Origin: Escherichia phage glasur
Reading direction: 5' to 3' (one strand)
Sequence record: MN850583.1
Length of the DNA stretch: 42,507 bases
Shown: positions 264 to 41,999 of the stretch, piece after piece
How the letters are laid out: each line of letters begins with the position of its first letter
Position numbering within the stretch: position 1 is the stretch's first letter
Position numbers and translations under genes: made by a program
The notes under the pieces: generated by a model
The model's database searches: none
Told to the model about the DNA's origin: nothing
The model's input: only the letters and a program-made list of their open reading frames with translations

Positions 264-292
264 TTGACAAGGCAAGCTCACTATGCTGTAAT
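264..292 (+). promoter_or_regulatory. Host sigma70-type early promoter (TTGACA-N17-TGTAAT, extended -10)
   Basis: Consensus -35 TTGACA at 264-269, 17-nt spacer, TGcTGTAAT with -10 at 287-292. Confidence 0.65.
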
Positions 293-400: not shown

Positions 401-429
401 TTGACAGGATGAAACGAGTATGCTGTAAT
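401..429 (+). promoter_or_regulatory. Host sigma70-type early promoter (TTGACA-N17-TGTAAT, extended -10)
   Basis: TTGACA at 401-406, 17-nt spacer, TGcTGTAAT with -10 at 424-429. Confidence 0.65.
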
Positions 430-479: not shown

Positions 480-508
480 TTGACACGCTGAATACGATGT
501 GATGTAAT
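480..508 (+). promoter_or_regulatory. Host sigma70-type early promoter (TTGACA-N17-TGTAAT)
   Basis: TTGACA at 480-485, 17-nt spacer, TGaTGTAAT with -10 at 503-508. Confidence 0.65.
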
Positions 509-2202: not shown

Positions 2203-2487
2203 ATGACCACTAAAACTGTTCTGGCCTACGTCACCAAGAAAGGCGAAGAAGTGTACGGCTATGCTGTGTCTATCGACGGCGGCCAAAACTACCTGCATCA
2301 CGTTCGTGAAGAAGGTGAACCGACCGACCATGATGGCATTCTGGAAACGCTGAAAGGCATTCCGCTGCCGCACGAAATCATCTGTATGCTGGCTGGCCAG
2401 ACGGAAGATGACCTGCAACTGCGTCACGGCGATGACCTGACCATTCAGGGTATCGGCAGCTTCGAAGCTGACGTAGACGACGAATAA
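2203..2487 (+). CDS. Small acidic protein (94 aa), member 1 of the tandem acidic array (C-terminal SFEAD motif)
   Basis: Internal ATG of track ORF 2158..2487 chosen because GGAG lies 8 nt upstream. Acidic composition; ends GIGSFEADVDDE. Confidence 0.65.
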   Translation: MTTKTVLAYVTKKGEEVYGYAVSIDGGQNYLHHVREEGEPTDHDGILETLKGIPLPHEIICMLAGQTEDDLQLRHGDDLTIQGIGSFEADVDDE

Positions 2488-2497
2488 GCGTTGTCCT

Positions 2498-2535
2498 GCT
2501 GCATCCTTGCGAGGGTGCAGCGTGGCAATACTGCC
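2498..2535 (+). promoter_or_regulatory. Leader element: hairpin (loop TCCTTGCGAGGG) followed by GGCAATACTGCC (copy 2 of 4)
   Basis: Stem GCTGCA/TGCAGC, then GGCAATACTGCC at 2524-2535. Confidence 0.5.
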
Positions 2536-2560
2536 TTATTCCAATCTGAGGATTAATCCT

Positions 2561-2899
2561 ATGTCTACACTGAAACTGGTACTGATTTCTAACATCGCTG
2601 CTGACGCTTTCGACGCTGATGACGTGGCAGAACTGCAACCGCAGACCTTCGTTGGCTTCCAGCGTGATGGCGAACCGGGCGCACTGGTTGTTGGCCCGAC
2701 TGGTGGTGACGGCGCGGAAGAAGTGAAAGCGCACTTCCACGAGGGCAACCTGCCGCCTGCACTGCCGCTGCAACTGGTTGCCATGTTCGAAGGTCTGGCA
2801 TTCGTCAGCCCGGACAACCTGAAAGAAGCGACCATCGAAGTCATCGCTGAGTACGAGCAGGACGGCGACGACGATGATGACGTGGACTTCTCTGCGTGA
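2561..2899 (+). CDS. Small acidic protein (112 aa), member 2 of the tandem acidic array (poly-Asp C-terminus)
   Basis: ATG at 2561 with TGAGGA upstream, inside track ORF 2507..2899. Ends ...EQDGDDDDDVDFSA. Confidence 0.65.
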   Translation: MSTLKLVLISNIAADAFDADDVAELQPQTFVGFQRDGEPGALVVGPTGGDGAEEVKAHFHEGNLPPALPLQLVAMFEGLAFVSPDNLKEATIEVIAEYEQDGDDDDDVDFSA

Positions 2900-2905
2900 T
2901 ACCTT

Positions 2906-2943
2906 ACTGCCTCGTTGCGACGGGGCAGTGCGGCAATCATGCC
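2906..2943 (+). promoter_or_regulatory. Leader element: hairpin (loop TCGTTGCGACGG) followed by GGCAATCATGCC (copy 3 of 4)
   Basis: Stem ACTGCC/GGCAGT, then GGCAATCATGCC at 2932-2943. Confidence 0.5.
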
Positions 2944-2964
2944 CAACCTAACTGGAGATTTACC

Positions 2965-3246
2965 ATGGCTACAATCAACGTGTATTCCCTGAGCAACGGC
3001 GGTCTGGCATTCATCGCTGGTGATAAGGTAGACGAAGCGCCGTCGCTGGGCGTGACGCCGAAACCGGAAGCCAGCCGTGATGATGTTATCGCGGAAGTCA
3101 AGGGTGCGCTGGAAGACCTCGGCGGTCTGCTGTTCGTCCTGAATGGTGGCAAGCTGTCGGTTGAAAAGCTGGACGCGCTGGAACCTGTCTTTGTTGAGAG
3201 CTTCGAAGCTGACAACATCGACCTCGCTGCTTTCGCTGACGCCTAA
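2965..3246 (+). CDS. Small acidic protein (93 aa), member 3 of the tandem acidic array; clear paralogue of the gene at 3584
   Basis: ATG at 2965 with GGAG upstream. N-terminus MATINVYSL..., central LGGLLFVLNGG and C-terminal SFEAD match the 3584 product. Confidence 0.7.
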   Translation: MATINVYSLSNGGLAFIAGDKVDEAPSLGVTPKPEASRDDVIAEVKGALEDLGGLLFVLNGGKLSVEKLDALEPVFVESFEADNIDLAAFADA

Positions 3247-3284
3247 GCATAACCCGAAACCCACAACCAAAGAGGACAATCAAC

Positions 3285-3515
3285 ATGGCTAAGTTTGAAC
3301 TGGTACGCTTCATTGACCCGAACGATGGCGAAGAAACCTTCGCGCAGTTTGCTGATGACCGCTCGCTGGTCGCCATCTACAACACTGAGCGCACGGCGCG
3401 GCGCTGGTTCAAGGAAGATGAAGACATGGACAGCATCGAAGAAGCGCTGGCTATGCCGGGCTACGCTGAGGCTGTCGAGGCAGCACTGAAAGGCGAAGTC
3501 GTAGCGACTGCGTGA
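3285..3515 (+). CDS. Small acidic protein of unknown function (76 aa)
   Basis: ORF track. AGAGGA ribosome-binding site upstream of the ATG. Confidence 0.7.
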   Translation: MAKFELVRFIDPNDGEETFAQFADDRSLVAIYNTERTARRWFKEDEDMDSIEEALAMPGYAEAVEAALKGEVVATA

Positions 3516-3522
3516 TTTCTGT

Positions 3523-3561
3523 CAGCCCATCCATAGCGGTGGGCTGTAGGGCAATCATGCC
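3523..3561 (+). promoter_or_regulatory. Leader element: hairpin (7-bp stem CAGCCCA/TGGGCTG) followed by GGCAATCATGCC (copy 4 of 4)
   Basis: Hairpin at 3523-3546, then GGCAATCATGCC at 3550-3561. Confidence 0.5.
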
Positions 3562-3583
3562 ACAACAACTGAGGGTATACACC

Positions 3584-3892
3584 ATGGCAACTATCAACGT
3601 TTTCAAAACTATCACTGGCTCACTGGTATTCGTAGTGGGTGAACTGCGTGAAGATGCACCAATCGTTGGCGTGTCTCTGCGTGAAGGGGCAACCGAGGCT
3701 GACGCCATCGCTGAGATTCGTCAGAACATTGAGAACCTCGGCGGCCTGTTCTTCCTGCTGCAAGGTGGCAGCCTGAACCTCGCTAAGTTGCAGGAGCATG
3801 AGCCTGTGCTCGTGACCAGCTTCGAAGCGGAAGACGTAGACGCCAGTGACTTCGAAGCCAGCCGCGCTGACGAAGAAGAAGCAGGCGAGTAA
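3584..3892 (+). CDS. Small acidic protein (102 aa), member 4 of the tandem acidic array; paralogue of the gene at 2965
   Basis: ATG at 3584 with GAGGG upstream. MATINVFKT..., LGGLFFLLQGG, SFEAEDVDASDFEAS and an acidic tail. Confidence 0.7.
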   Translation: MATINVFKTITGSLVFVVGELREDAPIVGVSLREGATEADAIAEIRQNIENLGGLFFLLQGGSLNLAKLQEHEPVLVTSFEAEDVDASDFEASRADEEEAGE

Positions 3893-4001: not shown

Positions 4002-4178
4002 ATGAAACTTGCAGTATCGCGCAGCGGTGCAAGCCATGCGGCACACAAGTTGCACTTCCTGTTCCACTCGCTGTACCTTACAGCGGCTGCGATGGAGGGT
4101 CACTTGTTCTACAGCCTCATGGCTGGCGGCACCTTACTGTTCATGGTTGGCACGGCGGTGCTGGGCAATGAACATTAA
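4002..4178 (+). CDS. Possible small membrane protein (58 aa)
   Basis: ATG with strong AGGAGA 8 nt upstream and a hydrophobic C-terminal half. Alternative overlapping frames (3892..4005, 3929..4171, 4201..4341) cannot be excluded. Confidence 0.35.
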   Translation: MKLAVSRSGASHAAHKLHFLFHSLYLTAAAMEGHLFYSLMAGGTLLFMVGTAVLGNEH

Positions 4179-4405
4179 TCTGTTACAACGGGTCAAGGGT
4201 ATGGAGCGTCGGCACTGGGAGACGGCCATCATCCTTAAGGTAAGCATAAGCGCTGGACTTGCTGCTGCTTATTTCCTGCCAACCACCGCAGCAATAGCCG
4301 TTGGTATCAGCACCAACCTGCTATGGTTGTGGAAGTTGTAAGCAGTGGATTACTCAAGGCTGTCCAGCGGGTAACCTTTTTGAAATCCATTGACGAGAGG
4401 GGAGC

Positions 4406-4744
4406 ATGGCACTACATCGAGTGAAGGTAATGCGTGGGCCTGACTTCGAAGACGGACAAGAGATTGCTGCATTGCAGTACCGCTTGCCGTCAGGTCAGGA
4501 GGGGCTGGTCATCATCGACCAGATTGAAATCATGGGTGAGCACATGCTGATTGCTGATGCCACCGATGAGCAAATCATTGAGCGCTGCAAGGCATACGCC
4601 GGGGGCAGACCGTTCATCATCGACCTGATGAATGACCAGCACATCAATGCTGATGGTTCGCTGCTGTTCAAGGCGTGGCTTCATGCTCTCACAACAATCT
4701 ACGAAGGGGAGATGTATCTCTTTGGAGTAGGCACCGAGGGTTAA
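4406..4744 (+). CDS. Early protein of unknown function (112 aa)
   Basis: ORF track. Strong GAGAGGGGAG ribosome-binding site. Confidence 0.75.
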   Translation: MALHRVKVMRGPDFEDGQEIAALQYRLPSGQEGLVIIDQIEIMGEHMLIADATDEQIIERCKAYAGGRPFIIDLMNDQHINADGSLLFKAWLHALTTIYEGEMYLFGVGTEG

Positions 4745-4746
4745 TC

Positions 4747-5061
4747 ATGAAAGTAAGCAAAGGATATCTGTTCGTGCTGTTGATGCTGGCTACCCTGTAT
4801 CTCAGCACATGCCACATCGCACTGGCTGCTGATGTGGAGAAGGTGCATTTGGATGCGTATGACGTACCGCTGGGCGCACCTGATGGACAGGTGTACTCTG
4901 CTTGCGTCATTGACCTACGCAAAGGTGGCACTGTCAGCACACTGGCCTACGTTGGTGAGTGTGAGGATGTGCTGCCACACCTGAAAGAAAAGCTGGAGCA
5001 TGATGGCGTGACCACCATCGTGACTCTCTCAATCAACGGTCATAACATCAACCTAACGTGA
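4747..5061 (+). CDS. Predicted secreted small protein (104 aa) with N-terminal signal peptide
   Basis: ATG at 4747 with GAGGG upstream. N-terminus MKVSKGYLFVLLMLATLYLSTCHIALA-ADV has a hydrophobic core and an A-x-A cleavage site. Confidence 0.6.
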   Translation: MKVSKGYLFVLLMLATLYLSTCHIALAADVEKVHLDAYDVPLGAPDGQVYSACVIDLRKGGTVSTLAYVGECEDVLPHLKEKLEHDGVTTIVTLSINGHNINLT

Positions 5062-5069
5062 GGTTTTAA

Positions 5070-5321
5070 ATGAGCACTCAAGCTAAGATTGTAATTCTGC
5101 GCAACGACTATGGCCGTCCTACTCCGTTCGGCACCTTCTGTCCGTTCCTCGATACCATTGAGGGTAAAGAGTACGATGTACTCATCCTCGAACCGGGTGA
5201 GGTGGACGCCGAAGGGGATGAAGTTGACAAGCGCTCGGTCAGTTTCCGCGATGAAGTGGGTGACTTAGCTGGCGCACACATTGACTACCATGAAGGTAAG
5301 TCATTCAAGTTCGTCGAGTAA
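5070..5321 (+). CDS. Early protein of unknown function (83 aa), acidic
   Basis: ORF track. GAGG about 10 nt upstream. Confidence 0.65.
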   Translation: MSTQAKIVILRNDYGRPTPFGTFCPFLDTIEGKEYDVLILEPGEVDAEGDEVDKRSVSFRDEVGDLAGAHIDYHEGKSFKFVE

Positions 5322-5327
5322 TAATCT

Positions 5328-5351
5328 ACAGCCTCTGCTTGCGGGGGCTGT
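5328..5351 (+). promoter_or_regulatory. Intergenic RNA hairpin (stem ACAGCC/GGCTGT, loop TCTGCTTGCGGG)
   Basis: Lies directly after a stop codon and upstream of the next ribosome-binding site; same loop family as the other early hairpins. Confidence 0.4.
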
Positions 5352-5379
5352 GTCACTAACAAATAAACGAGAGGCAAAC

Positions 5380-6824: not shown

Positions 6825-6970
6825 AGTTGATAAGCTGCAACCAAATAAACCTTTGGCTGTGCGTGATACAAAGTGGGAAGCCGAGAGTAAACTCGAAGAC
6901 CTTCAACGTATTATGCGGAATGTTATTCCAGCTTAGCCATCTACTCATGCCAGTTATTATTTAGCTGGCA

Positions 6971-6993
6971 TTATGAAGGTGACTATATTGGAC
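6971..6993 (+). promoter_or_regulatory. Phage-promoter-like element, variant copy (TTATGAAgGTGACTATAtTGgAc)
   Basis: 19/23 identical to the 20845-20867 element and contains GTGACTATA. Placed directly upstream of the first gene of the replication module. Confidence 0.5.
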
Positions 6994-7007
6994 AACCCGG
7001 AGGAAAT

Positions 7008-7208
7008 ATGTTTCGTGTATTAATGTTATTCGCACTTGTCGTTATATTGTGGGGCGCGTTATGGGTAGGTGTTGCCTATTTCATTCAGCCCTACATTGGC
7101 GAACAGCTTACCTCTGTAATTGGTACGCTGCTGGGCTTTGTTGTTGGCGCAGTTGGTATGACCAAGTGCATTGACATTGGCTGGAGTAAGGGGTGGGTGA
7201 AATGGTAA
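7008..7208 (+). CDS. Small membrane protein (66 aa, two predicted transmembrane helices)
   Basis: ORF track. GGAGG ribosome-binding site. Hydrophobic segments LMLFALVVILWGALWVGVAYFI and VIGTLLGFVVGAVGM. Confidence 0.65.
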   Translation: MFRVLMLFALVVILWGALWVGVAYFIQPYIGEQLTSVIGTLLGFVVGAVGMTKCIDIGWSKGWVKW

Positions 7209-10272: not shown

Positions 10273-10945
10273 TGCCGAAGCTAAGCGCGTGTGGGCAGAA
10301 GATATCTGCCGTCTGCTGCAATCCGAAGAACTGAACTTCGTGGTTGCCGGGGGAGGGGCAAGGGATACCGCGCTGGGTGTTGAGCCGAAGGACTACGACA
10401 TTGTAGTCTTTGGTTGGGGTGGTGATGTGAGCCGTGTGGCTGGCCGACTGGACTGGCTGGACTCCAGACTGGAGGACTACGCCAAGCAGAACGAGCTGGC
10501 GTATGAGTACATGCCGAGCTATCACGATGCAGCAGAGGGTGGCGACTTCGGCTCCCGTCTGTGGGGTGTGTATAAGATTGGCCCGGTCGATGTGATTATC
10601 AGTAAGTGCGGGTGCTGGTCGCAGGTACTGAACGAGTTCGACTTCAACCTGAACCAGTTCTACTTCCCGTCCAGCATCCCGCGTTACTCCGGCCAGTACA
10701 GCCGCGACCCCGGCGAGTTCATGGCGTACCCGTATGAGCCGAACCTGACTGCCGAAGATGTGCAGTGGTTCCCGGCGCTGGCCAGTCTGGTAGAAAGCTA
10801 CGATGACCTGCTGACTCTCCGTGTCTGCCGACCGGATGCCAGCCTGAGTCGTGTGGCCTACATGCTGGAGAAGCACGAGAAGTATCTGCCAGCCATTGAA
10901 GCATACGTTAATCGTATGCCCGACCACTTAGGTGGCAAAGCATAG
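10262..10945 (+). CDS. Nucleotidyltransferase with Pol-beta-type head domain of the CCA-adding/poly(A) polymerase class (227 aa)
   Basis: Motif FVVAGGGARDTALGVEPKDYDIVVFG matches the GGxxRDxxLGxxxxDxD signature of class II tRNA nucleotidyltransferases. ATG at 10262 with AAGGGGA upstream, inside track ORF 10121..10945. Confidence 0.6.
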   Translation: MISNAEAKRVWAEDICRLLQSEELNFVVAGGGARDTALGVEPKDYDIVVFGWGGDVSRVAGRLDWLDSRLEDYAKQNELAYEYMPSYHDAAEGGDFGSRLWGVYKIGPVDVIISKCGCWSQVLNEFDFNLNQFYFPSSIPRYSGQYSRDPGEFMAYPYEPNLTAEDVQWFPALASLVESYDDLLTLRVCRPDASLSRVAYMLEKHEKYLPAIEAYVNRMPDHLGGKA

Positions 10946-10955
10946 CGGGGGATTG

Positions 10956-13421
10956 ATGGCTATTCGAGCACAGATTATCGACGTTGAAACTGAGAACCAC
11001 GAGTGGTATGGGGAGCTGGCATCACCTCGCTGCCCTGACAACTACGTGGTGATGCAGGGACAGCGCGACTGTGTGCTGACCAAGGATGGCTGGGAGTTCT
11101 ACAAGCGTGAGGAATATCGGTACGCATCCCGTGAGGATTGGCTGGCGAACAAGAGCCTGCACCTCCACCCGGATACGAACATACTGGTTGCACACAACGC
11201 GCCGTATGAACTGAGCTGGTGGTTCGAGCATTACGGTGATGAGTTCAAGGCGTTCCTCTTACGAGGTGGCCGTGTATTCTGTACCGCGTATGCTGAGTAT
11301 CTGCTGACACACCAGCAATCCCAGTACCCATCCTTGAACGAGACAGCACCGAAGTATGGTGGTACTCACAAGGTGGATGCAGTCAAGGCAATGTGGGAGT
11401 CAGGTTATCTGACCAGCCAGATTGACGCTGAGCTGCTGAGCGAGTATCTGTCCGGGCCGTCCGGGGATATTGAGAACACGACCAAGCTGTTCGTTGGTCA
11501 GTGGGCAGAGCTGACGAAGCAGGGCATGTTGCAGATGGCACTGACCCGCTTCGAAGGTATGCTCATGTGGGCGTACATGATGCACTCCGGTCTACACGTT
11601 GACCGTGAGGTAGCAGAGCGTAACCGCCGTGAGTTGCAGGATTCAATCAGTGGGTTAACCGAGACACTGATGGGCTACCTGCCTGCCGACATGCCAAGTG
11701 AAGCGCGTGAGCAATTCAAGTTCACGTCTGCTTATCACATGAGCGCATTCGTGTTCGGCGGCGTGATGAAGTACAAGGCGCGAGTCGAGCGCCGGGATGG
11801 AGATGGCAATCTCATTTACGTGAAGGTGGATGCACCACTGTTCAAGCGTGGCAAGGACAAGTGGCTCAAGCATACCAGCGAGTGCGAGTGGGATGATGAG
11901 ACTGGGTTGTGGTATGACCCGGTTGAGAAGGTACACCAGACCATCTACTCCAGCGGGAAGAACAAGGGTGCGCCCAAGTTCGAGAAGTTGGCGACCGATG
12001 AGGTGGACACCAAGTGGGGTGAGGTACTGTTCCGGTTGCCCGGTCTGCTGCGTGTGCAGGACAGACGAGCGCGGGAGATTGCCGACAACCTTGAATGGGA
12101 AGACCCGAAGCGTCCGGGTGAATATCTCCGGCGCACTGGTGACTGGGTAGGTAAGCGCAAGCTGGCTGACGGTTCTCCTGTATTCAGTACGGCGGGTGAG
12201 GTGCTGGACATTCTGGCAGCTCGTAAGATTCCCGGCGTCGTGGAGATTGCTGACCGGGCCAAGGCGCAGAAAGACCTCGGCACCTACTACCTCAGCGAGA
12301 CGTTTGATGATGAGGGCAACGTGACTGGCCAGTCGGGGATGATGCAGTTCATCCAGCCGGACAGCATCGTACACCACACCATCAACATGACCGCGACTGA
12401 GACGACGCGATTGTCATCTCAGCGACCGAACAGCCAGAACCTGCCACGTAAAGGTACGAGTAAAGTTAAGCAGATGTTCACCTCTCGCTTTGGCGAAGGT
12501 GGCCGCATCGTTGAGGCTGACTACTCGGCACTGGAAGTGGTGGGGCTGGCCGGGTTCAGTAAGGACAAGAACCTGATTCGTGCATTGCTCGATGGTATCG
12601 ACATGCACTGTATGCGATTGTCTGCTCAACTCAATGAGCCATACGAGGACGTGCTTAAGAAGTGCAAGGATGAATCCCATCCTGACCATGCACGATACAG
12701 TCAGATGCGTACTGACATTAAGCCCAAGGCGTTCTCCTATCAGTATGGTGCAACAGCGCGAGGCATTGCCTACTCGACTGGTTGCTCGGAGGAAGAAGCA
12801 CAGGCGTTCATCGACAACGAGAAGGGTCTGTTCCCGGAAGTTGAAGAATGGTTCGACGCTGTAATCTTCCCCGCCGTTGAGCGTAGTGGACAGAGCAACG
12901 TGTTCAAGGAACAAGATGAGAACGGACGGTGGCAGGTGTATCGCCGTGGTCACTTCCGCTCGCCGGGTGGAACTTGTTATTCATTCCGTCAGTATGAGAA
13001 ATGGAACAAGGCGGCGCGTGCTTATCTGATGGAATACAAACCAACCCAAATGCGTAACTATCCTATTCAGGGTGAGACAGCGTTTTGGGTGCAGGGAATT
13101 GGTGGGCTGCTGTTCCGCTGGCTGCTGGCCAATGACTTCTTTGGTGGGCGTGTGGTTCCCATCAACCAAGTGCATGACGCATTCTATTTCGACGTGGCAC
13201 CTGACTGTCCTCACGAGTTCTTCGTTGGACTCAAGGCAATCATGGAATCCATCCCGGAATATTACAACCACATCTGGCCTGAATATAACCTGACAGTTCC
13301 GTTTCCGGCAGAGGTAGAAGCTGGGCCAAGCATGTACGAAAAGCATCACGTAGAGACGACAGCCGAAGAAGTGCTGGAGTTCAAACGTAACTTCCTGACG
13401 AGTAAGGGTATTAGCATATGA
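10956..13421 (+). CDS. Family A DNA polymerase (T7 gp5-like) with 3'-5' exonuclease domain
   Basis: Exo I motif IIDVETEN, polymerase motif A DYSALEVVG, motif B KAFSYQYGATARG and motif C VHDAFYFD. The ATG at 10956 is preferred; the track's GTG at 10932 is possible. Confidence 0.92.
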   Translation: MAIRAQIIDVETENHEWYGELASPRCPDNYVVMQGQRDCVLTKDGWEFYKREEYRYASREDWLANKSLHLHPDTNILVAHNAPYELSWWFEHYGDEFKAFLLRGGRVFCTAYAEYLLTHQQSQYPSLNETAPKYGGTHKVDAVKAMWESGYLTSQIDAELLSEYLSGPSGDIENTTKLFVGQWAELTKQGMLQMALTRFEGMLMWAYMMHSGLHVDREVAERNRRELQDSISGLTETLMGYLPADMPSEAREQFKFTSAYHMSAFVFGGVMKYKARVERRDGDGNLIYVKVDAPLFKRGKDKWLKHTSECEWDDETGLWYDPVEKVHQTIYSSGKNKGAPKFEKLATDEVDTKWGEVLFRLPGLLRVQDRRAREIADNLEWEDPKRPGEYLRRTGDWVGKRKLADGSPVFSTAGEVLDILAARKIPGVVEIADRAKAQKDLGTYYLSETFDDEGNVTGQSGMMQFIQPDSIVHHTINMTATETTRLSSQRPNSQNLPRKGTSKVKQMFTSRFGEGGRIVEADYSALEVVGLAGFSKDKNLIRALLDGIDMHCMRLSAQLNEPYEDVLKKCKDESHPDHARYSQMRTDIKPKAFSYQYGATARGIAYSTGCSEEEAQAFIDNEKGLFPEVEEWFDAVIFPAVERSGQSNVFKEQDENGRWQVYRRGHFRSPGGTCYSFRQYEKWNKAARAYLMEYKPTQMRNYPIQGETAFWVQGIGGLLFRWLLANDFFGGRVVPINQVHDAFYFDVAPDCPHEFFVGLKAIMESIPEYYNHIWPEYNLTVPFPAEVEAGPSMYEKHHVETTAEEVLEFKRNFLTSKGISI

Positions 13422-18147: not shown

Positions 18148-18384
18148 ATGATGAGCAGATACCAACGAGCCATTGAGGACACCGTGGTTGAGAAAGGTGT
18201 GTGCGGGGCGTGCCACGGCTGTGGCACATTCACCAGCATGACCATTCGACACGAGCTTGTCCAAACTGAATGTGAAGCCTGTGGTGGCACGGGCGTGACT
18301 GACCCGGCACTGCAACGCTCAGTGCTGCGGGAACAAGGTATGCGCTGCCAAGTGCAGCCGGGCTATGACCAACCAACGGAGTAA
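18148..18384 (+). CDS. Small zinc-finger protein with two DnaJ-type CxxCxGxG repeats (78 aa)
   Basis: CGACHGCG and CEACGGTG motifs. ATG with TAGGAGAT upstream, inside track ORF 18091..18384. Sits immediately upstream of the RNA polymerase gene. Confidence 0.6.
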   Translation: MMSRYQRAIEDTVVEKGVCGACHGCGTFTSMTIRHELVQTECEACGGTGVTDPALQRSVLREQGMRCQVQPGYDQPTE

Positions 18385-20819
18385 TGATGGACTTACTTGC
18401 TGAGCAGATTCGACTGGAAGAAGAAGCGCGAGCCAGACACCGCGAGGGCTGGCTGGATAATATCAGAGAGGCGTTGGCCGCTGGCCGGGCTGGTTCAGTA
18501 CCATTGCTCCAGCGTATGATGGTTGAGGCGTATCCTCAAGTTGAAGCTGCGATGCAAGAACTCCTGAATGAAACTGCCCGTGGTTATGGTGCGCAGTACC
18601 GGACATACATGCGTGAGCTGGGGCCGCGTGCCTGCGCCTCACTCGCATTGAGCATGGCTGTGTCTGGTGCTGCTGCTGAGCAGGCAGTGCTTAACTTGCT
18701 CAAGGATATGGGCAAGGCTCTGATGGCTGAGGTAGTGTACCTTCGGGCCAAGGCAGCCGGGCCTGTGCAGGCTGCTTACATGGCCAAGGTTAAGACTGAC
18801 GTTAAGCGCTCACGTTCCAAGTCAGCTAACCATGTGTACAACAAGGCGAAAGCGTCGGCGGCTAACGTTGGCGTTGAGCTGGATATCCTGCCGCAGCGTG
18901 CGCTCATCACCATTGGTAAGATGATGATGAAGTGCATTGAGCCTACTGGTCTGCTGGTCACTATGCGCGTTGGCGGCAACCACCGTCAGCGTGGCACTGC
19001 GCACTTCGCACTGCATGAAGATGTGCTGGCAACGATGAAAGATTGGATGGACTTGCCACGGGCAGACGGCCTGTGCTGTCCTCCAATGATTATCCCGCCA
19101 GCGCAGATTGCACGCGATGGTCGTAGCGGTATGTGGCACTCTCCGGGGCAGGCGGCCATGTACCGGGCAATCAGTCGCATGAATCACCGAGGCTATCGTG
19201 CGCTGGGTGTTGACCCACTGCCCATCATAGAGCCGTGTATGATGCTCAGCAGCGTTCCGTACCGAGTTAACCCAATGGTACTGGAGTTCCTGAGAACGAA
19301 CCGTACAGGCGTTATGGGGCTGCCTGTGCCACCGCGTGAGCCTAAGCTCCCGTTCACTATCCCGGCAGGCGTCAGCTTCGCACAGTACATTAGCAAGTTC
19401 CCACCCGAAATGCAGCAGCAGATGGAGTCGGAAGCGCACGAGTACAAGGTGAAGACCCGTCTGTATTACAACGAGCTGCGCAAGTTCACGTCACAGATGC
19501 TGGCGCTGAACGGTGCAGTCAAAGAGGCCGAGCGCTATGCGCCATACGATAGGGTATATCTCCCGACTTACGCCGATACGCGGGGCCGAATTTATTATTC
19601 TTCGACCCTTAACCCTCAGTCCATCGACGCGGTGCGAGCGCTGCTCGAACTTGCTGAACCAGTGGCTCTCGGAAGTGAGGGGCTGTTCTGGCTCAAGGTA
19701 CATGTTGCGAATTGTTTTGGATACGACGCCACAGACTTCGACGACCGGGCAGCGTGGACGGACAAAACACTCCCCAGACTACGTGAGGCGTGCCGTCTTC
19801 CAGAGGCATTTGATTCGTTCTGGTCAGAAGCCGATAGCCCTATCTCAGCGTGGGCTGCTGCTGTTGAACTCATTCGAGCTATCGACTCAGGAAGTCCTGA
19901 GACTTATCCCTGCCGAGTGGTTACGCAGTGGGACGCTACATGTTCAGGACTCCAGCACCTCAGTGCGATGCTACGAGATGAGGTTGGCGGTGCTGCTGTC
20001 AATCTTGTCGATAGCGTGGGAAGAAAAGCAGACATATATCTCAAGACGGCAGCAGCGGCGATGCAGGCTCTTGAAGAAAGTGAAGCGGCTGCGCCGACGA
20101 CAATGGGTTCGTGGCTTGTTTCCATCGGCATTGTTCGGGCTATGGCCAAGAAGCCAGTGATGACCTACGTGTATGGGGCAACCCGGCACGGCATGGTTGA
20201 TTACTACTGCCTGTACCTGCGCGAGAACCGGGTCAAGCTGCCGGAGGGCAAGAGCCTGCTGGAGTGTGCTCAGTTCATTGCTGAGTTTATGTGGGCTGCT
20301 ATCCCTCGCGTCGTGCCGAAAGCTGCTGAGCTTATGGCATGGTTGCAGGCTATCGCAGTAGAGGCTGCGAGCATGGGTGAGTACGTGGAGTTCACTGCGC
20401 CGTCAGGTCTGCGTGTGGTCAATCTGTATCAGGCCAGCAAAGAGATTGCGCTGAACAACATCAACCTCATGGGTATCCACGGCATCAAGCTGCGCGAGTA
20501 TCTGGATAAGCCAGACGGTCGCAAGTGTGCCGCTGCGATTGCTCCGAATTTTGTACACGCTATGGATGCCAGTCACATGATGAAGGTTCTGTGGGAGATG
20601 TGGAATAACGGGGTATACATGGTATCCATCCACGACTCGTTCGGTGTAGCGGCAGCTCATGCCGGGCTACTGCACAAGGTCATACGTGAAAAGTTTGTGC
20701 AGATGTATGAGGAATGCGACCCTATTCAGCAACTTGCGTCAGCATATAACCGTGAAGCTCCAGCTCGCGGTAATCTGGACATCCAGCTTGTGAAGAAATC
20801 AAGCAAGTTCTTCTGCTGA
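18384..20819 (+). CDS. Single-subunit DNA-dependent RNA polymerase (T7 RNAP family)
   Basis: 811 aa. [29 protein letters not shown] matches the T7 RNAP [20 protein letters not shown] region, and VSIHDSFG matches catalytic motif C. Located at the end of the DNA metabolism module. Confidence 0.93.
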   Translation: [811 protein letters not shown]

Positions 20820-28675: not shown

Positions 28676-29410
28676 ATGGGTTGGGCAGCTTTTGCTAAAG
28701 CTGGTGCCGACGCCACGAACTCTTTCATCACCACCTATGCTCAGGGACGAGCAGAACGTGCGCAGATGAAAGCTGTGCAGGCAGAGAACGAACGCCTGAA
28801 CAAGCAGACGTGGCAGGCAATGGGCCAGCGCATCAACACCGTCAATCTCCAGCGTGGCCTACTCCGGCAGCAAACTGGCACCGACCTGTACAACATCAAC
28901 AAGGAAGCTAACCGGGCAGCAGGTGCCAGCATCAACAACGCCGCCGCCGCTGGTATTGAAGGTGCGTCGGTTGACGAATCAGTCAACGATATCAGTCGTC
29001 AGAATCAGGAAAGCCAAGCGCAGACCCGGTTCAATGAGCAGATTCAGGAGATGAATCTGGACACGAGCATTGAGGATATTGTGAACACGGCAGTCGCCGC
29101 GCAGCGATACTCTCAGAAACCTGCGAGCAACAGCATGATTGTTGGCCGCGCCATCGGCGTGTCTGCAATGCAGTTCGCTTCCAGCCTCGCGCAGACCAGC
29201 TTCGACTACATGCCTACTGAGGGTGCCAAAGGCACAGGTACTCAGGGTGGTAGCGGATTGGGTGGCCTGTCCGGGAACACTGGTGCGAGCACGGTTCAGC
29301 TCGGCACTACCAATTGGATGCAGAAAGCTGGGGAGTTTGACCCGGTTCCTGCTCAGTACAGTTCTAATCGCTACACGGGCTACAGCTCCGGTAGCTTGTT
29401 TGGGGGCTAA
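28676..29410 (+). CDS. Internal virion (core) protein, small
   Basis: 244 aa, Gln/Asn/Ala-rich with Gly-rich C-terminus. Position corresponds to T7 gp13/gp14. Confidence 0.6.
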   Translation: MGWAAFAKAGADATNSFITTYAQGRAERAQMKAVQAENERLNKQTWQAMGQRINTVNLQRGLLRQQTGTDLYNINKEANRAAGASINNAAAAGIEGASVDESVNDISRQNQESQAQTRFNEQIQEMNLDTSIEDIVNTAVAAQRYSQKPASNSMIVGRAIGVSAMQFASSLAQTSFDYMPTEGAKGTGTQGGSGLGGLSGNTGASTVQLGTTNWMQKAGEFDPVPAQYSSNRYTGYSSGSLFGG

Positions 29411-29412
29411 TC

Positions 29413-32109
29413 ATGCCAATTATGCGTGACCAGCGTGGCGCTAATCTCAACGCTGCGCAACAGGGCGTACCGAATGTGCAGCAGGCTCAGACTCCGTTTA
29501 GTCTCGCAGGCCGCGATACTCGCATCGACACGTTCCCTACTGAGTCCATCCAGCGCGTACTCAACATGGCCAGCGCACTTGCTGGCCGTGTCACTGAGCG
29601 TGCTAACGAGGAAGAATACCTCAAAGGTGCCAACGCCGCCGCGAGCGGCAAGGCTGTTGAGGATTTGGATTCGAACTGGCTGACAGCTCAGTTCCAGAAA
29701 GCTGGTTATAACGACCAATACAAGCGTATGCAGATGGCTGGTGTGGCCTCTGATATCTCGGCCAACATGACCGAGTACGCGAAAATGTCTCCGCAGGACT
29801 TCCTCAAAGTCATTGACGAGAAGACTACCGGGCTGTTCGACAACACTGATGGCATGACCCTTCGTGGTCGCCAGTCACTGCTGGAGAACCAGCTCACGTT
29901 CAGCAACACCCTGATTCGCACGCAGGCTGCCCAGCACGGTAAGTATCTGGTTGAGCAGCGTGCAGCAATGTACAACTCACAGGGTAACACTCTGGTTACT
30001 CTGGCGGCTCAGGCCAAGGCTTCCGGCGACGGCGGTGCGTATGCAAACGCCACGGCTGCGACCATGGCATGGGCTAAGTCCATTCTGGCCGACGACAAGC
30101 TGCCGCTGGAAACCCGGCGCACGCAGGTCACTTCCATGATGGGCCTGATGCTTTCTCAGGATTTGCGTACTCCGGTCGAGACTGCTGTTAACTCCGGCCT
30201 GTTCAACGACCTGCCTGCCGATGACTTGGCCAAGCTGCAAGGTCAGATTCGTGAATCCAAATCTCGTACCGAGGTGCAGGATAACATGGGTCTGCTGGAG
30301 GCGAAGGGCCAGCTTGATGCTCGTCAGGCTGTGTTTGGAGACGTTACGCCGGGCCAGTACGGTCAGGTGCTCCAGCAGTTGGTGGACAACAAGCTCATCA
30401 CTGCTTCCGGGTACAGCTCGGCTATCGAGTCCTTCTACAAGGATTACGCCAAGCAAGCCAAGGCCAGCCAGCTCGGTCAGGCGTATGCCACCGGGAACCA
30501 GACGTACATGCTCCAGCAGGGCGCAAGTGAGCAGGATGGTGCTGACGCATTCATCAAAGCTCGTATGAAGCAGCCGGGCGCTACGGCCAGCTCTGTGGCA
30601 TTCGACCTGCTGCAAGTTGGCGCACAGACTGGCTTCCCGTCTGCGTACAAATCCGCAGCCAAACTGATTGAGCCATCCCTGTCGAACTTCGGCACCGTGG
30701 ATGAGATGAACCCGGATGCTGCCCGTACCGTCACTGGTCTGATTGACCGTGTGACTGTGGCAGAAAATCAGGGTGACAAGACCGCGTGGACTAAGCTCCT
30801 GTCTGGTCTGTCAGAGGAAAACCAAGAGAAGATGGTGTACATGCGCGAGCAGATTAAAGCTGGCCGCACCATCGACCAAGCTGGTCAGGGTTACATCAAG
30901 CAGCAGCAGGACTATGCTGGCTTAACTCCTGCTCAGAAGTCCCAAATCTTAACACAGCGTCAATCTGACGTGAACAGTGTAGTCAACTCACTTGAGTCCC
31001 AAGGCTTCTTATCTCGCACTTGGCAGGGCTTAGCTGGTCTGTTCTCAGACACTCAGCAGAACCTGTTCCAAGCTCGCGTCGCATCTGGTGACATTACTGC
31101 TGCGCAGGAAATGTCGGAGGTGTCTGCCGCGTACCGCGAGGAACTGCAAGCTGTTGTCCTCAAGAACCCGAACATCACGAAAGACGGTATGGAAGCGCTC
31201 GCGTCTGCGAAGCTGGCCAACCGCGTGCTGCGCGTCGGGGAGACTACGTTCAGTCCCGGCTCTGTGCTTATCGCTCCGAGAAACCAAACTGTTCAGTCTA
31301 TGCTTGGCTTGCCTGCTGACGTGGCACCCGACCGTATCGGTCGCGCCATCGCCTCACTTGACCAGAGCAAGGCACCAGAAGGTTTCGAATCGTCCTACTC
31401 GTTTATGCCCGATGGCTCACTGAACGTTCAGTTCTTCAACAAGACGGGTGACGTTTCCCCGAACAGCTACCGGATTACGCCGCAGGCTATTCAGGAACGT
31501 ATCCGTGAAGACGACCGTGCAGCCGCCACCGCAAATAACGAAGTCTATGGCGATGGGAAACTCTTTGTCGATAAGTCCAGCAACATCGGGATTCGCGTCA
31601 ACGGCGTGAATACTGCTGGGGTTGATGAGCAGCGTATGCTCTACGCCCGTGGCAAGCTGATTGACTTCGAAGGTATCCGCAACACCACCTACCGCGACTC
31701 CACTGGTGTCAGCACCAACGGCATCGGTATCTCTGACCGCAGCCCGTACTTTGCGGAAGGTCAGGCATCCGGTATGCGCGGCGGTACTGAGTGGTCGCCT
31801 CGAACCATTCATGACACGTTCGTTAACCACACCAACATGGTGGCCCGGCAGATGCCCGGTACTGCTGCTGCGCTGGGCTGGAGTCGTGACAACGACGCTC
31901 AGTTCCAGTTCATGATGCAGATGGGCTATCAGGCAGGTTCAAGCTGGTATCGTGCCGAGGGTGCGTACAGCAAGCTGGCTGATGCTATCCGTGTTGGCGA
32001 CCGTGACAAGGCTGTTCAGGCTCTGGCTGCGACTCCGGCTTACAAGCTATCGCAGGATGAGCGCAAGCAGTATTACGTCCAAACTCTACTCGCAGGTATG
32101 CAGGAATGA
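29413..32109 (+). CDS. Internal virion (core) protein, T7 gp15-like
   Basis: 898 aa, position and size. Confidence 0.7.
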   Translation: MPIMRDQRGANLNAAQQGVPNVQQAQTPFSLAGRDTRIDTFPTESIQRVLNMASALAGRVTERANEEEYLKGANAAASGKAVEDLDSNWLTAQFQKAGYNDQYKRMQMAGVASDISANMTEYAKMSPQDFLKVIDEKTTGLFDNTDGMTLRGRQSLLENQLTFSNTLIRTQAAQHGKYLVEQRAAMYNSQGNTLVTLAAQAKASGDGGAYANATAATMAWAKSILADDKLPLETRRTQVTSMMGLMLSQDLRTPVETAVNSGLFNDLPADDLAKLQGQIRESKSRTEVQDNMGLLEAKGQLDARQAVFGDVTPGQYGQVLQQLVDNKLITASGYSSAIESFYKDYAKQAKASQLGQAYATGNQTYMLQQGASEQDGADAFIKARMKQPGATASSVAFDLLQVGAQTGFPSAYKSAAKLIEPSLSNFGTVDEMNPDAARTVTGLIDRVTVAENQGDKTAWTKLLSGLSEENQEKMVYMREQIKAGRTIDQAGQGYIKQQQDYAGLTPAQKSQILTQRQSDVNSVVNSLESQGFLSRTWQGLAGLFSDTQQNLFQARVASGDITAAQEMSEVSAAYREELQAVVLKNPNITKDGMEALASAKLANRVLRVGETTFSPGSVLIAPRNQTVQSMLGLPADVAPDRIGRAIASLDQSKAPEGFESSYSFMPDGSLNVQFFNKTGDVSPNSYRITPQAIQERIREDDRAAATANNEVYGDGKLFVDKSSNIGIRVNGVNTAGVDEQRMLYARGKLIDFEGIRNTTYRDSTGVSTNGIGISDRSPYFAEGQASGMRGGTEWSPRTIHDTFVNHTNMVARQMPGTAAALGWSRDNDAQFQFMMQMGYQAGSSWYRAEGAYSKLADAIRVGDRDKAVQALAATPAYKLSQDERKQYYVQTLLAGMQE

Positions 32110-35100
32110 TTACACAAGAATCGCTCGACAAGTTCATGGCTCCCAAGCAGGGGGCCAATGCCCCTACGCTGGTGATTCCAGCTCCCGTAAAAGCTGAGAC
32201 GCTCAGCACTCCACTGCAAGACGCCACTCGTCAGGGTGCCGTTGAGCAGTTCGATAAGATGCAGGAACTGGAAGCGACACCAATTGCCACGGCTTTGAGC
32301 GCTTCTGTGAAGAACTGGGATACAACTCAGCTCTTTGATGCGGCATTCAACAAGCCTGTGTTTCAGGCTGACCCTGACTTCCATCCGAACGAGGCATTGC
32401 AGAATGTCCAGTTCCCGGTGACTGAGGATGACCGCACGTTCCTGTTCAAGTCCAAATCAATGGATGAGTTCAACTGGCGTACACAGCAGCTCCAAGAGAT
32501 GCGCGAACGTACCCAGTTGGCTCACACTGCGCCAGTGATGAACGCAGTGCTGCAATTCGCTGACCCGCTGTACCTCGCCACTGACCTGCTCTCGATGGGA
32601 GCAGGCACTGCCCTGAAACTTGGTCGCCTCGGAACCGCCGCTGTCGGTGCAGCTTCAACTGCTGCCACTATGACAGCGGTGGGTAACGAAGCACGCCCAG
32701 TGTCTCAGAACGAGATTATCTTTGCGGCTGCCCTGCATGGGGCGGCCACCACTGCATTCTATCGCCCCGCCGCTGCGCCAGCCCGTCGCCTTGATGAGCT
32801 GTCGCCGGAGGAATTTGCGGCAGAGATGCAGCGCCGTAACGGTATCGACCCGAACAACCCGCCGCAGTTCGACCCGAACAATGCCATGTCTCCGCTGGCA
32901 ATGTCACTGGGCTTCGGGCGTCGTGGTGCCATGGAGACTGATGAGGTTCCTGAATCCATCCGGGCTGCGGCTCAGCGTGGACTCGACCTCGCTCGCCGTG
33001 GTGAGCAGACCAACCCTAAGCGCCCGTTCCTTGAGTGGTCACTGTTCAAGTCGTTCAGTCAGCATTCTGATGAAGCCAGTGCTCTGGCCGGGCGTCTGCT
33101 GGATGACCCGCTGAATCCGAACATGACCTCTGCTGCTGCAATCCAGCGCGAGACTCAGGCTCGCTTCGGCGTGCTGCTGAACCAGTATGAAGACACTCTG
33201 CGTCATGCCCTGACCACTGACGGTTGGAGTAACATCCGACGCTTCCGTGACCCGGTTGGCTATCGCCGGGCGCAGCAGGAGTTCGAAGCTGCTGTTCGTC
33301 TTGAGCTGGACAAGCGCATGATTGACAATAACTTCCGTGGCGCTAACCCGAATGTGGCTAATGCTGCTGACCGACTGGGCGAATACTCTCGCGCTGTGGG
33401 CCGGGAGCTGGAGCGCAAGGGTATGGTTGAGCCGGGCTTCGTGGAGAAGAACCCGTACTACTACCCTCGCCGGATGAACGTGACTAAGGTTGAGCAGGCT
33501 GAGCAGTTGCTCGGCAAGAAGCCATTCATGAAGCAGATGACGACTGCTGTGCAGCGCGGTATCGGTACTGACCGTCCGACTGCCAACGTCATTGCCCATG
33601 CCATGGTTGAGCGTGCTCGCCGTAAGGGTTACGGTATCGACAACTCCGGTATGATTATCAACAAGGAGGGCCGCGATGAGCTGCTCGAAATCATTGAGAA
33701 CTCGAAAGGACTTGACGAGGCTGCCAAGGCCCGTGCTTCCGCACTCCTTCGTGAATCTGGCTCGGACGCTGGCCGACCGTCGATGCTTAAGAGCCGTATC
33801 AACATCGACATGATGCACCAGCTTGGCCCTAACTTGCAGGTGCGTGACCTGTTCGATGACAGTATCACCAGCATGATGGATGCGTACAACCGCCGCATTA
33901 CCGGGCGACTGGCGCTGCATGAGGCTGGACTGGGTACTGACGCCGAACGCGCTGCTGCTCGTGAGGCTCTGGCCAAATCCATCAAGGATGGTATGGCACG
34001 ACGCCAAGCATTGGAGCAGTATGACAACATCATGGCCTATTATCAGGGTTCCCCGGTCGGTGAGGAAATGCCGCAGTTCATGCGCCAGCTCTCTGCACTG
34101 ACTCAGGCTACTGGTCTGGCTGCATCCGGTCTGTGGCAGTTGGTGGAATACGGCACGATGATGCAACGTTTCGGGGCGGTCAATACATTTCGCGCCATGA
34201 TGCGCACAATCCCGGAAGCACGCGCATTATTTAAGCAGATGAGAGTGACTACTAAGGAAGGTCGTCAGTTGGCCTTGGATGCTGAGGAAGCTCTGACCGC
34301 TGCTGTGGCAAGTGATATCCGTATGCGCCCAATCATGCAGCACTATGAAGACATGTTCTCTGCTGACAAGTCACCGTGGGTTATGCGTCTTGAGCACGCC
34401 CGTGACGCCACGATGTTCATCAACATGCAGAAATACATCCACTTCCACCAGACTCGAACCAATGCTGCGCTCGTGATGCAGACGCTGCGTAAGGCAGCCG
34501 AAGGTGATGCCAAGGCTATTGCAGCCATGAAAACCTACGGTGCCAATGACGCGCTGCTGGCTGACATTCGCAAGCAGGTTGGTACTCATGGCACCAAGCC
34601 CGACGCTTGGGATGAAGGGGTGTTCAATCGCTCTCGCATTGTCATGATGAATGCCATGGATGACGCTATTGTTCGCGCTCGTGTAGGTGAGCTGCCTGCA
34701 TTCGCAGAGTTCAGCACGCTGGGCAAGTTCCTGTTTACGTTCCGTCGATTCGTCGCGGCTACGCACAACAAGACTCTGGTGGGTACATGGAATCGTGAGG
34801 GTGCGCGTGGTATGGCTACGCTCATGGCGTACCAGTACCCGCTGGCAATGATGGCCACTGCCGCCAACAACGTGATTTCCGGTAAAGCATTCTCCGACCC
34901 GGAAACCATGGCACCTAATAAGCTGGCTGGCCAAGCGCTGAATTATCTTGGTGCTATCGGCTTTGCCTCTGAGTTCACTGGTGTCCTGACTGGGCAGCAG
35001 CGTAGCTTCGGTGCGCCGGGCTTGCTGTTCCTTGACCGCGCTTACGGTGTGGCAGGCGCAGCTACCAGTGCTGCTGGCGGCGTGCTGACTGGTGATACCG

Positions 35101-35213
35101 AGCAGGCAGTGTCCGGCGCTCGTAAAACGGCAGGTAACATCATCCAAGCTATCCCACTCATCTCAATCGTGCCGGGCGTCCGAGCACTCAACGAAGCAGT
35201 TAAGGGTGAATAA
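32106..35213 (+). CDS. Large internal virion (core/ejection) protein, T7 gp16-like
   Basis: 1035 aa, position and size. I could not confirm a lytic transglycosylase motif by eye. Confidence 0.7.
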   Translation: MITQESLDKFMAPKQGANAPTLVIPAPVKAETLSTPLQDATRQGAVEQFDKMQELEATPIATALSASVKNWDTTQLFDAAFNKPVFQADPDFHPNEALQNVQFPVTEDDRTFLFKSKSMDEFNWRTQQLQEMRERTQLAHTAPVMNAVLQFADPLYLATDLLSMGAGTALKLGRLGTAAVGAASTAATMTAVGNEARPVSQNEIIFAAALHGAATTAFYRPAAAPARRLDELSPEEFAAEMQRRNGIDPNNPPQFDPNNAMSPLAMSLGFGRRGAMETDEVPESIRAAAQRGLDLARRGEQTNPKRPFLEWSLFKSFSQHSDEASALAGRLLDDPLNPNMTSAAAIQRETQARFGVLLNQYEDTLRHALTTDGWSNIRRFRDPVGYRRAQQEFEAAVRLELDKRMIDNNFRGANPNVANAADRLGEYSRAVGRELERKGMVEPGFVEKNPYYYPRRMNVTKVEQAEQLLGKKPFMKQMTTAVQRGIGTDRPTANVIAHAMVERARRKGYGIDNSGMIINKEGRDELLEIIENSKGLDEAAKARASALLRESGSDAGRPSMLKSRINIDMMHQLGPNLQVRDLFDDSITSMMDAYNRRITGRLALHEAGLGTDAERAAAREALAKSIKDGMARRQALEQYDNIMAYYQGSPVGEEMPQFMRQLSALTQATGLAASGLWQLVEYGTMMQRFGAVNTFRAMMRTIPEARALFKQMRVTTKEGRQLALDAEEALTAAVASDIRMRPIMQHYEDMFSADKSPWVMRLEHARDATMFINMQKYIHFHQTRTNAALVMQTLRKAAEGDAKAIAAMKTYGANDALLADIRKQVGTHGTKPDAWDEGVFNRSRIVMMNAMDDAIVRARVGELPAFAEFSTLGKFLFTFRRFVAATHNKTLVGTWNREGARGMATLMAYQYPLAMMATAANNVISGKAFSDPETMAPNKLAGQALNYLGAIGFASEFTGVLTGQQRSFGAPGLLFLDRAYGVAGAATSAAGGVLTGDTEQAVSGARKTAGNIIQAIPLISIVPGVRALNEAVKGE

Positions 35214-40539: not shown

Positions 40540-41028
40540 ATGAAACTGTCTCGGCTTATGGCCGGGGCAGTCTTGTCTCTGTCCTTGACATTGACGGGCT
40601 GCTCCGCAACAAGCGCACTGTCTGCTGTAACCTCGGCTGTCTCTCCCAATAAGCCGGAACTAACGGCACAGGTTGGCGCAGAGAACACGAAACAAGGCAT
40701 CGGCTTGACTGCGAAACAGTCCGACGAAACGAAGGTCGGTGACGTATCTGGTAACGCGCAAGTGGATACCGCTAAACAGGGTAGTGATTCGACGACTGTG
40801 AAGGACGTCACAGGAGGCTCTGTAAACGCTTCTAAGCAGGGGTCGCAAATGACCCAAGGGAACGTACAGGCTAAAACTGTTGTCATCTCACAGAGCGACC
40901 CACGCAGCCTCCTATGGGCTTTCGGCATGGGTCTGACCTGTATCTTAGGCTTGGTAATGTGGTTTGTACCATCTCCGTGGAAAAAGAAGGTGAAAGATGA
41001 CGGAAGCAAAGAAGGAGCCAGCTCCTAA
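40540..41028 (+). CDS. Putative unimolecular spanin (N-terminal lipoprotein signal plus C-terminal transmembrane helix)
   Basis: Lipobox LTLTGC at the N-terminus, Thr/Ser/Lys-rich periplasmic region, C-terminal helix LLWAFGMGLTCILGLVMWFV followed by basic PWKKKVKD. Adjacent to the endolysin gene. Confidence 0.5.
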   Translation: MKLSRLMAGAVLSLSLTLTGCSATSALSAVTSAVSPNKPELTAQVGAENTKQGIGLTAKQSDETKVGDVSGNAQVDTAKQGSDSTTVKDVTGGSVNASKQGSQMTQGNVQAKTVVISQSDPRSLLWAFGMGLTCILGLVMWFVPSPWKKKVKDDGSKEGASS

Positions 41029-41916: not shown

Positions 41917-41999
41917 GGGTATCCGAAAGCTGACACAATGAACAGGCCGTGGGTGCAATACCCCGGCTTGAAAATTGAACGTTTATGCGTGGGCCTCCC

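Follow-up and report, generated by a model that had tools for sequence, protein, structure and literature searches.

A small gene in the early region of Escherichia phage glasur and the predicted export of its product to the periplasm

What would a virulent podovirus gain from placing a small protein in the periplasm of its host early in infection? The question is raised by an open reading frame at positions 4,747 to 5,061 of Escherichia phage glasur (MN850583.1); throughout, "the window" means the whole 42,507-nt stretch of DNA that we analysed. A preliminary description, made from the letters, had read this frame as an early-expressed, secreted small protein and named superinfection exclusion or the modulation of envelope or defence components as possible roles.

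The gene and its early-region setting

The frame lies exactly where the preliminary description placed it, from the ATG at 4747 to the TGA ending at 5061 with 104 codons. It follows closely on an upstream gene, whose stop at 4744 leaves 2 nt before the ATG.

4747..5061 including the stop, + strand: coding sequence of a 104-aa precursor (ATG 4747-4749, TGA 5059-5061), from the ORF listing and translation.
4736..4740, + strand: Shine-Dalgarno-like GAGGG, 6 nt 5' of the ATG, read from the sequence.
4406..4744, + strand: conserved gene for an acidic 112-aa protein (pI 4.6), directly preceding the secreted-protein gene in every carrier examined.

Purifying selection marks the frame as a real gene. 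Comparison with the homologue in phage Lidtsur gave 31.5 synonymous and 19.5 non-synonymous differences, corresponding to a dN/dS of 0.155 over the whole gene and 0.118 over the part encoding the mature protein. Its GC content is 0.517 against 0.536 in the early region, ordinary for its surroundings, and base composition gave no sign of foreign origin. A search of the window against Rfam returned no match. Several GenBank records already annotate the gene, which belongs to no described family: its counterpart in the 97.6%-identical phage forsur, forsur_38, is a "hypothetical protein", the label carried by its homologues in all public annotations, and a literature search found no paper discussing the gene or its relatives.

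Glasur has a phiKMV-type gene arrangement. All large genes are on the + strand, starting with a SAM lyase (987-1379) and continuing through many small ORFs, primase/helicase, DNA polymerase (10932-13421) and RNA polymerase (18384-20819). After the RNA polymerase come the portal and nozzle, the internal virion proteins, the colanidase tailspike, the terminase and the lysis genes. Ejection proteins occupy 28676-35213, and a GH108 endolysin is also encoded. Around our gene, the sequence is 97.6% identical to Escherichia phage forsur, 97.8% to usur, and about 95% to Pantoea phage ROV85, Cronobacter phage RZ4 and Kosakonia virus Kc261; the taxonomy lines read for forsur, Kc261, megetsur and smaasur give Bonnellvirus, Autographiviridae. 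The small early ORFs include a run of paralogous acidic proteins at 2203-3892, in which 2965-3246 and 3584-3892 are clearly related and 2203-2487 and 2561-2899 more distantly so. A 21-nt repeated element (GGGCAGTGCGGCAATCATGCC-like) stands just upstream of three of these paralogues, at 2515, 2923 and 3541. At the far right of the window, a 171-aa ORF (41985-42500), annotated in forsur, is Cys/Arg/Ala-rich and low-complexity-looking, and a long opposite-strand ORF (41898-42374) overlaps it; its coding status looks doubtful.

Host-type promoters cluster at the left end of the window. An exact pattern search found three sigma70-type sites sharing one sequence:

264..292, + strand: host promoter TTGACA-N17-TGTAAT with a TGn extended -10.
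401..429, + strand: host promoter TTGACA-N17-TGTAAT preceded by TGn, belonging to repeat family D14.
480..508, + strand: host promoter TTGACA-N17-TGTAAT preceded by TGn.

These three matches, all at 264-508, are the only ones in the window, and 0 were expected from 100 shuffles. A fourth promoter-like site, TTGCAA-N18-TGTAAT with TGn before the -10, lies at 161-190. The whole cluster (161-508), with its unusual -10 TGTAAT, is followed by an ORF-free leader of about 480 nt and then by the SAM lyase gene. Our generic promoter scan missed these left-end promoters because it requires an A at the second position of the -10.

The gene is probably transcribed early and by the host. A generic terminator scan found no convincing terminator ahead of 4747-5061, and the phage RNA polymerase gene is 13.6 kb downstream. 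In Pantoea phage LIMEzero, the homologous block sits just before the primase, between annotated host promoters on one side and an annotated terminator with the first phage promoter on the other. Near 6947-6996 glasur has a hairpin, missed by the generic scan, together with sequence resembling the LIMEzero early terminator and first phage promoter (…GGACAAC), and this point probably marks the end of the early region. Directly after this putative early/middle boundary, 7008-7208 encodes a 66-aa protein with two predicted TM segments and no family match. Left-end host promoters, the SAM lyase in first place, the distance to the RNA polymerase and synteny with LIMEzero together give good support to reading 4747-5061 as an early, host-transcribed gene, and the preliminary description's placement of it in that region fits all four.

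An export signal and a compact acidic domain

The precursor appears to consist of a Sec-type signal peptide and a small mature domain.

4747..4827, + strand: predicted signal peptide, residues 1-27, with n-region MKVSK, h-region YLFVLLMLATLYL and c-region STCHIALA; predicted signal peptidase I (SPase I) cut after A27.
4828..5058, + strand: mature domain of 77 aa, pI 4.7, net charge -7, from alignment, charge and pI computation, and AF2.

Each part of the N-terminus has the expected character. It reads MKVSK-GYLFVLLMLATLYL-STCHIALA/ADVEK, with the slash at the predicted cut and a hydrophobic core of 13 residues. Its n-region is made positive by K2 and K5, and a K or R occurs among the first five residues in 16 of 16 family members. 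The best 10-residue window of the h-region has a mean Kyte-Doolittle value of 2.9, within a range of 2.9-3.3 over all members. The cleavage motif is A25-L26-A27/A28, with no Pro from -3 to +1, and none of the 16 members examined has a +1 Pro. A twin-arginine (Tat) motif is absent, residues 1-27 containing no Arg.

We called the signal peptide by rules combined with family conservation. The rule-based screen asked for a positive n-region, an uncharged 10-residue core and agreement with the -3/-1 rule, and covered the 227 ATG-initiated ORFs of at least 40 aa on both strands; 4747-5061 received the top score. Its remaining matches were the two-TM protein at 7008-7208, the lipoprotein u-spanin at 40540-41028 and non-genic ORFs. 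The signal architecture is kept in 16 of 16 homologues (a set that includes L006 and L008 from IMG/VR), down to 31% identity, and all 16 have A/V-x-A in the homologous column. The scoring heuristic itself chose this site in 14 of the 16, preferring an alternative in P0007 and P0014. In a 14-member alignment, only M1 and A27 (position -1) are invariant among residues 1-27 and position -3 is A or V; the remaining positions vary freely yet stay basic and then hydrophobic. The Sec-type signal with an ALA/A site named in the preliminary description is thus present by rules and conserved across the family.

An exported protein may also stay tethered to the membrane, as a type II signal-anchor protein or as a lipoprotein attached through Cys22. 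T5 Llp and Cor are small envelope-exported, receptor-masking phage lipoproteins that protect the infected or lysogenic cell from further infection. Tethering would draw on the uncharged span G6-A28, whose 23 residues are long enough in principle for a membrane anchor and so count against a released soluble form; on a Cys placed 5-6 residues before the AxA site in most members; and on canonical lipoboxes in three divergent members, P0007 (VSAC), P0008 (ISAC) and P0012 (LVSC). Cys22 itself lies in the context L-S-T-C, where the Thr at -1 makes the lipobox non-canonical, unlike Llp and Cor. At the equivalent position forsur and Kc261 have V and P0003 has A, while L006 has no counterpart; yet apart from this, members without the Cys reach 97% identity. 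Lipidation of Cys22 is improbable. An invariant -1 Ala within A/V-x-A is hard to explain without cleavage. In T4 RI it was the cleavage site that told a cleavable signal from a SAR anchor, and a +1 Pro blocks cleavage (PMC8385771); no family member has Pro there. We regard a tethered product as quite unlikely.

The predicted mature protein is uniform across the family. Cut at the homologous AxA site, all 16 members yield 76-77 aa with a pI of 4.55-5.16 and exactly two Cys; the preliminary estimate of roughly 75 aa was close to the 77 aa in glasur. Invariant positions in the 14-member alignment, which reaches down to 31% identity, are M1, A27, D36, A37, D39, C53, D56, T65, C72, I96, N97, G98, N102 and L103. 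The pair of invariant Cys in the mature part suits an oxidising compartment. Read against Sec/SPase I and DsbA biology, the conservation pattern as a whole fits a periplasmic domain that carries a disulfide and is released from its export signal by cleavage.

Structure prediction points to a compact alpha/beta fold. AF2, run on an alignment of 13 sequences, modelled the full-length protein with pLDDT 76 and pTM 0.53, as a helix at 5-25, a low-confidence linker, strands at 31-43, 49-59 and 62-69, a helix at 72-85, and strands at 89-96 and 99-101. The mature part alone was modelled better (pLDDT 82, pTM 0.68), with the topology beta1-beta2-beta3-alpha-beta4-beta5, so in the predictions the signal helix is a module apart from the mature domain. 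A C53-C72 disulfide is geometrically plausible in the predicted strand register, since C53 in strand 2 lies opposite residues 68-69 and C72 is three residues past the end of strand 3. Conservation is highest in the C-terminal hairpin TTIVTLSINGHNINLT, yet modelling confidence is lowest there (pLDDT 62-70), a combination that hints at an interface with a partner or between subunits of an oligomer.

The predicted fold has no counterpart in the PDB by Foldseek, which returned nothing significant for either the full-length or the mature-only model. Its best matches, RNase H-like, YeaZ and COMM domains, are partial three-strand/helix/strand overlaps (E>=0.024, TM<=0.53) that we do not take as homology. 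In BFVD, the only significant Foldseek matches were the family members from Lidtsur and LIMEzero.

The frame might still be non-functional, or its product cytoplasmic with a fortuitously hydrophobic N-terminus, and the uniform "hypothetical protein" label would sit easily with that. Such a reading is extremely improbable given purifying selection, a good ribosome-binding site, a confident AF2 fold of the mature part, and a length, Cys pair and signal architecture all kept at 31% identity across two genera. We think it very probable that the protein is made early, exported by Sec, cut after A27 and left as a small acidic, disulfide-containing periplasmic protein. Host RNA polymerase would transcribe the gene from the left-end promoter cluster, SecYEG would export the 104-aa precursor, signal peptidase I would cut after Ala27, and DsbA would probably join C53 and C72. 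The product would be an acidic 77-aa (~8 kDa) alpha/beta protein, soluble in the periplasm.

The family and its genomic slot

The protein belongs to a small family confined to one group of virulent podoviruses of Enterobacterales, because protein and phage searches gave few matches and bacterial and archaeal genomes none. A search of 5.8 billion clustered proteins returned 12 clusters at 58-94% identity, and an HMM search run exhaustively over 1.84 billion representatives at 50% identity returned 6 matches. One of the 6, P0015, a 7702-aa Thr/Ser-rich repeat protein with 29 weak stretches, was rejected as compositional. By tblastn against 50,697 phage records, the gene occurs in usur, forsur, ROV85, Kc261, RZ4 and Lidtsur, and ORF11 of Pantoea phage LIMEzero (genus Waewaevirus) is a homologue at 31% identity. 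IMG/VR added five contigs with the family, each of 42-44 kb. Carrier hosts are Escherichia, Kosakonia, Pantoea and Cronobacter. No relative was found in one genome each of 185,579 bacterial and archaeal species, and we rejected a prophage or host origin on that count.

Family membership gives no function. The 104-aa protein had no match at E<=0.1 to Pfam, PHROGs, NCBIfam or PADLOC profiles, these libraries returned no match to the products of neighbouring genes either, and a PDB sequence-profile search gave 0 matches at E<=10. The proteins of LIMEzero (ORF11), Lidtsur, forsur (forsur_38) and Kc261 are true homologues (31-97% identity) in the same position after a gene of about 110 codons, and all of them are "hypothetical proteins".

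The upstream neighbour is more widespread than the secreted-protein gene. A gene for 109-113 aa adjoins the secreted-protein gene, at a gap of a few nucleotides, in the window, Lidtsur, L005, L006, LIMEzero, L008, forsur and Kc261; its LIMEzero version is 49% identical to the glasur 112-aa protein, which matched nothing in Pfam, PHROG or NCBIfam. We found the 112-aa gene in 19 phage records, 10 of which (megetsur, smaasur, HHU8 and seven others) have no secreted-protein gene. The bonnellvirus J8-65 is a non-carrier too. An obligate two-gene system was rejected, as the 112-aa gene stands alone in these 10. In megetsur, smaasur and HHU8, unrelated small cytoplasmic-looking proteins are encoded directly after it.

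Other neighbours are equally loose companions. Downstream of our gene, an 83-aa protein (5070-5321) belongs to a small family with a GKEYDVLILEPGE motif, and its paralogues (for example L011 2839-3081) occupy the position after the 112-aa gene in phages without the secreted protein (HHU8, megetsur). A link between the two was rejected: Lidtsur has the secreted-protein gene without the 83-aa gene, and HHU8 the reverse. Right after the 83-aa gene, 5331-5352 forms a GC-rich hairpin (CAGCCTC...GGGGCTG) with no T-run behind it, which might serve in RNA processing or stability rather than in termination. Upstream, overlapping genes at 4002-4178 and 4168-4341 encode hydrophobic proteins of 58 and 57 aa, probably membrane proteins, with no family match. 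This pair precedes the 112-aa gene in Lidtsur, L005, L006 and L008 and was not seen in Kc261 or LIMEzero, which carry the secreted-protein gene all the same; a link to the pair was rejected as well.

The slot after the 112-aa gene is a gene-exchange hotspot, and the secreted-protein gene is an accessory, dispensable and independently lost element within it, outside the core lytic programme. Its accessory status follows from its absence in many sister phages, some of which share a host with carriers: both carriers (forsur, usur, Lidtsur) and non-carriers (megetsur, altidsur, smaasur and others) were isolated on E. coli K-12 MG1655. In agreement with this, it has been remarked that differences among bonnellviruses lie "primarily in small hypothetical genes" (PMC7552041).

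We found no correlation between the gene and tailspike type; carriers and non-carriers alike have a colanidase tailspike. The megetsur tailspike is 92.5% identical to the one in the window, that of Kc261 86% and that of Lidtsur 59%. The glasur tailspike (35213-37585), a colanidase, depolymerises colanic acid and is 92.7% identical to a phage NST1 protein named "colanic acid-degrading protein". It also shares about 47% identity with tailspikes of ~150-kb myoviruses, which makes it a module common to very different phages.

Candidate functions at the cell envelope

Small size and the lack of any enzyme-family match favour a binder over an enzyme. We propose that the secreted protein would act stoichiometrically on an envelope component active during infection. 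Its likeliest target may be the ejection machinery that a second incoming phage exposes to the periplasm, such as the weakly detected lysozyme-like C-terminal part of the 898-aa internal virion protein, and binding would shield the infected cell from secondary infection or lysis from without.

This proposal is modelled on T4 Spackle. Spackle (Sp, gp61.3) is an early, exported protein with a 97-aa precursor, a 75-aa mature form and one disulfide; its partner is the tail lysozyme, which it binds on the positively charged face (PMC7677548). The two proteins share an origin in an early gene of a virulent coliphage, an export signal, a similar mature length (75 aa against 77 aa here) and a single Cys pair. 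Spackle engages a positively charged surface, and the protein described here is strongly acidic. They differ in fold, a helical bundle in Spackle against three predicted strands, a helix and two strands here, and they share no sequence similarity, as the PDB profile search showed.

A possible counterpart of the Spackle target is encoded in glasur. The C-terminal ~150 aa of the 898-aa internal virion protein (29413-32109) gave a sub-threshold Phage_lysozyme match (E 0.0017, 19.1 bits vs a cutoff of 22.3). This lysozyme-like region has a pI of 8.9, and the PHROG family of the 898-aa protein is named "internal virion lysozyme motif". In the 1035-aa gp16-like protein (32106-35213), positions 1 to ~177 of the matched PHROG profile have no counterpart; the corresponding N-terminal region of T7 gp16 carries the transglycosylase.

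We favour an envelope-stage binder because the gene is dispensable on K-12, its product is not enzyme-like, its design parallels that of Spackle and a weak lysozyme-like domain is present in the virion. Four points stand against so close a parallel: the alpha/beta fold against a helical bundle; a virion lysozyme match below the Pfam threshold; a distribution that tracks no visible variant of the entry apparatus, with tailspike and ejection proteins common to carriers and non-carriers; and a low dN/dS in the mature part, where nothing points to arms-race diversification. Receptor masking in the manner of T5 Llp and Cor meets a similar objection, as the gene's occurrence does not follow the receptor-binding protein. 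By analogy with Spackle, a role as a periplasmic binder that counters secondary infection or lysis from without at the envelope stage is possible but doubtful.

The target might instead belong to the host. The exported protein could counter a periplasmic or outer-membrane defence effector, a protease, or a sensor of envelope stress or capsule, serving anti-defence or takeover in some hosts only. Patchy presence among K-12-plating phages fits a factor needed in particular hosts, and carriers on Escherichia, Kosakonia, Pantoea and Cronobacter make an Enterobacterales-wide target plausible. Host defence that acts in the periplasm against DNA entry exists (HXS system, PMC13128918), and the phage uses a colanic-acid-degrading tailspike. 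PADLOC and the other libraries gave no match, however, and host-protein mimicry was not seen, the HMM search of 1.84 billion representatives having returned the family alone. We consider a host-directed function somewhat unlikely. The preliminary suggestion of superinfection exclusion or of envelope or defence modulation drew no support from homology, fold or defence databases, and is neither confirmed nor refuted.

Regulation of lysis timing offers a third possibility, in which the protein would bind the periplasmic domain of a holin like the T4 antiholin RI. RI, too, is a small periplasmic phage protein released through a cleavable Sec signal peptide, and the holin complex may form early in infection (PMC8385771). 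An accessory, dispensable character would suit a modulator. The glasur protein, however, has no sequence or fold similarity to RI, and its gene lies 36 kb from the lysis cassette. We found no holin with a large periplasmic domain: the sole holin-like candidate (40997-41380, 127 aa) has one C-terminal TM segment and only ~20 residues past the membrane. An RI-like role is a long shot. Within the lysis genes, 40540-41028 encodes a 162-aa protein with a canonical lipobox (LTGC), a C-terminal TM segment and a phrog_1804 match, a unimolecular spanin; spanins of this T1 gp11 type have been reported for J8-65 and LIMEzero (PMC6139136).

Taken as a whole, early expression, export and action as an envelope-stage binder form our best explanation, which we hold tentatively. 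The secreted protein most probably works like the known small Sec-exported early periplasmic proteins of phages, with a different, currently unmatched fold. A bolder version is unlikely: that it is the founding member of a family of new-fold, Sec-exported, disulfide-bonded periplasmic effectors of phiKMV-type podoviruses, which would block the envelope stage of a second infection by binding its ejected internal virion proteins, for instance at their lysozyme-like domain, and so do the work of T4 Spackle with an unrelated structure.

Few early periplasm-exported proteins of virulent phages have a known mechanism, T4 Spackle and RI being the examples we checked. The family described here is a compact candidate, with 77 aa, one probable disulfide, a confidently predicted, unmatched fold and natural presence/absence variants among K-12 phages. 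If it has no phenotype in secondary infection or envelope defence, it would be one of many accessory early ORFans. If it does block secondary infection or counter an envelope defence, it would show how a podovirus guards the periplasmic step of entry, with possible relevance to the design of cocktails from bonnellviruses.
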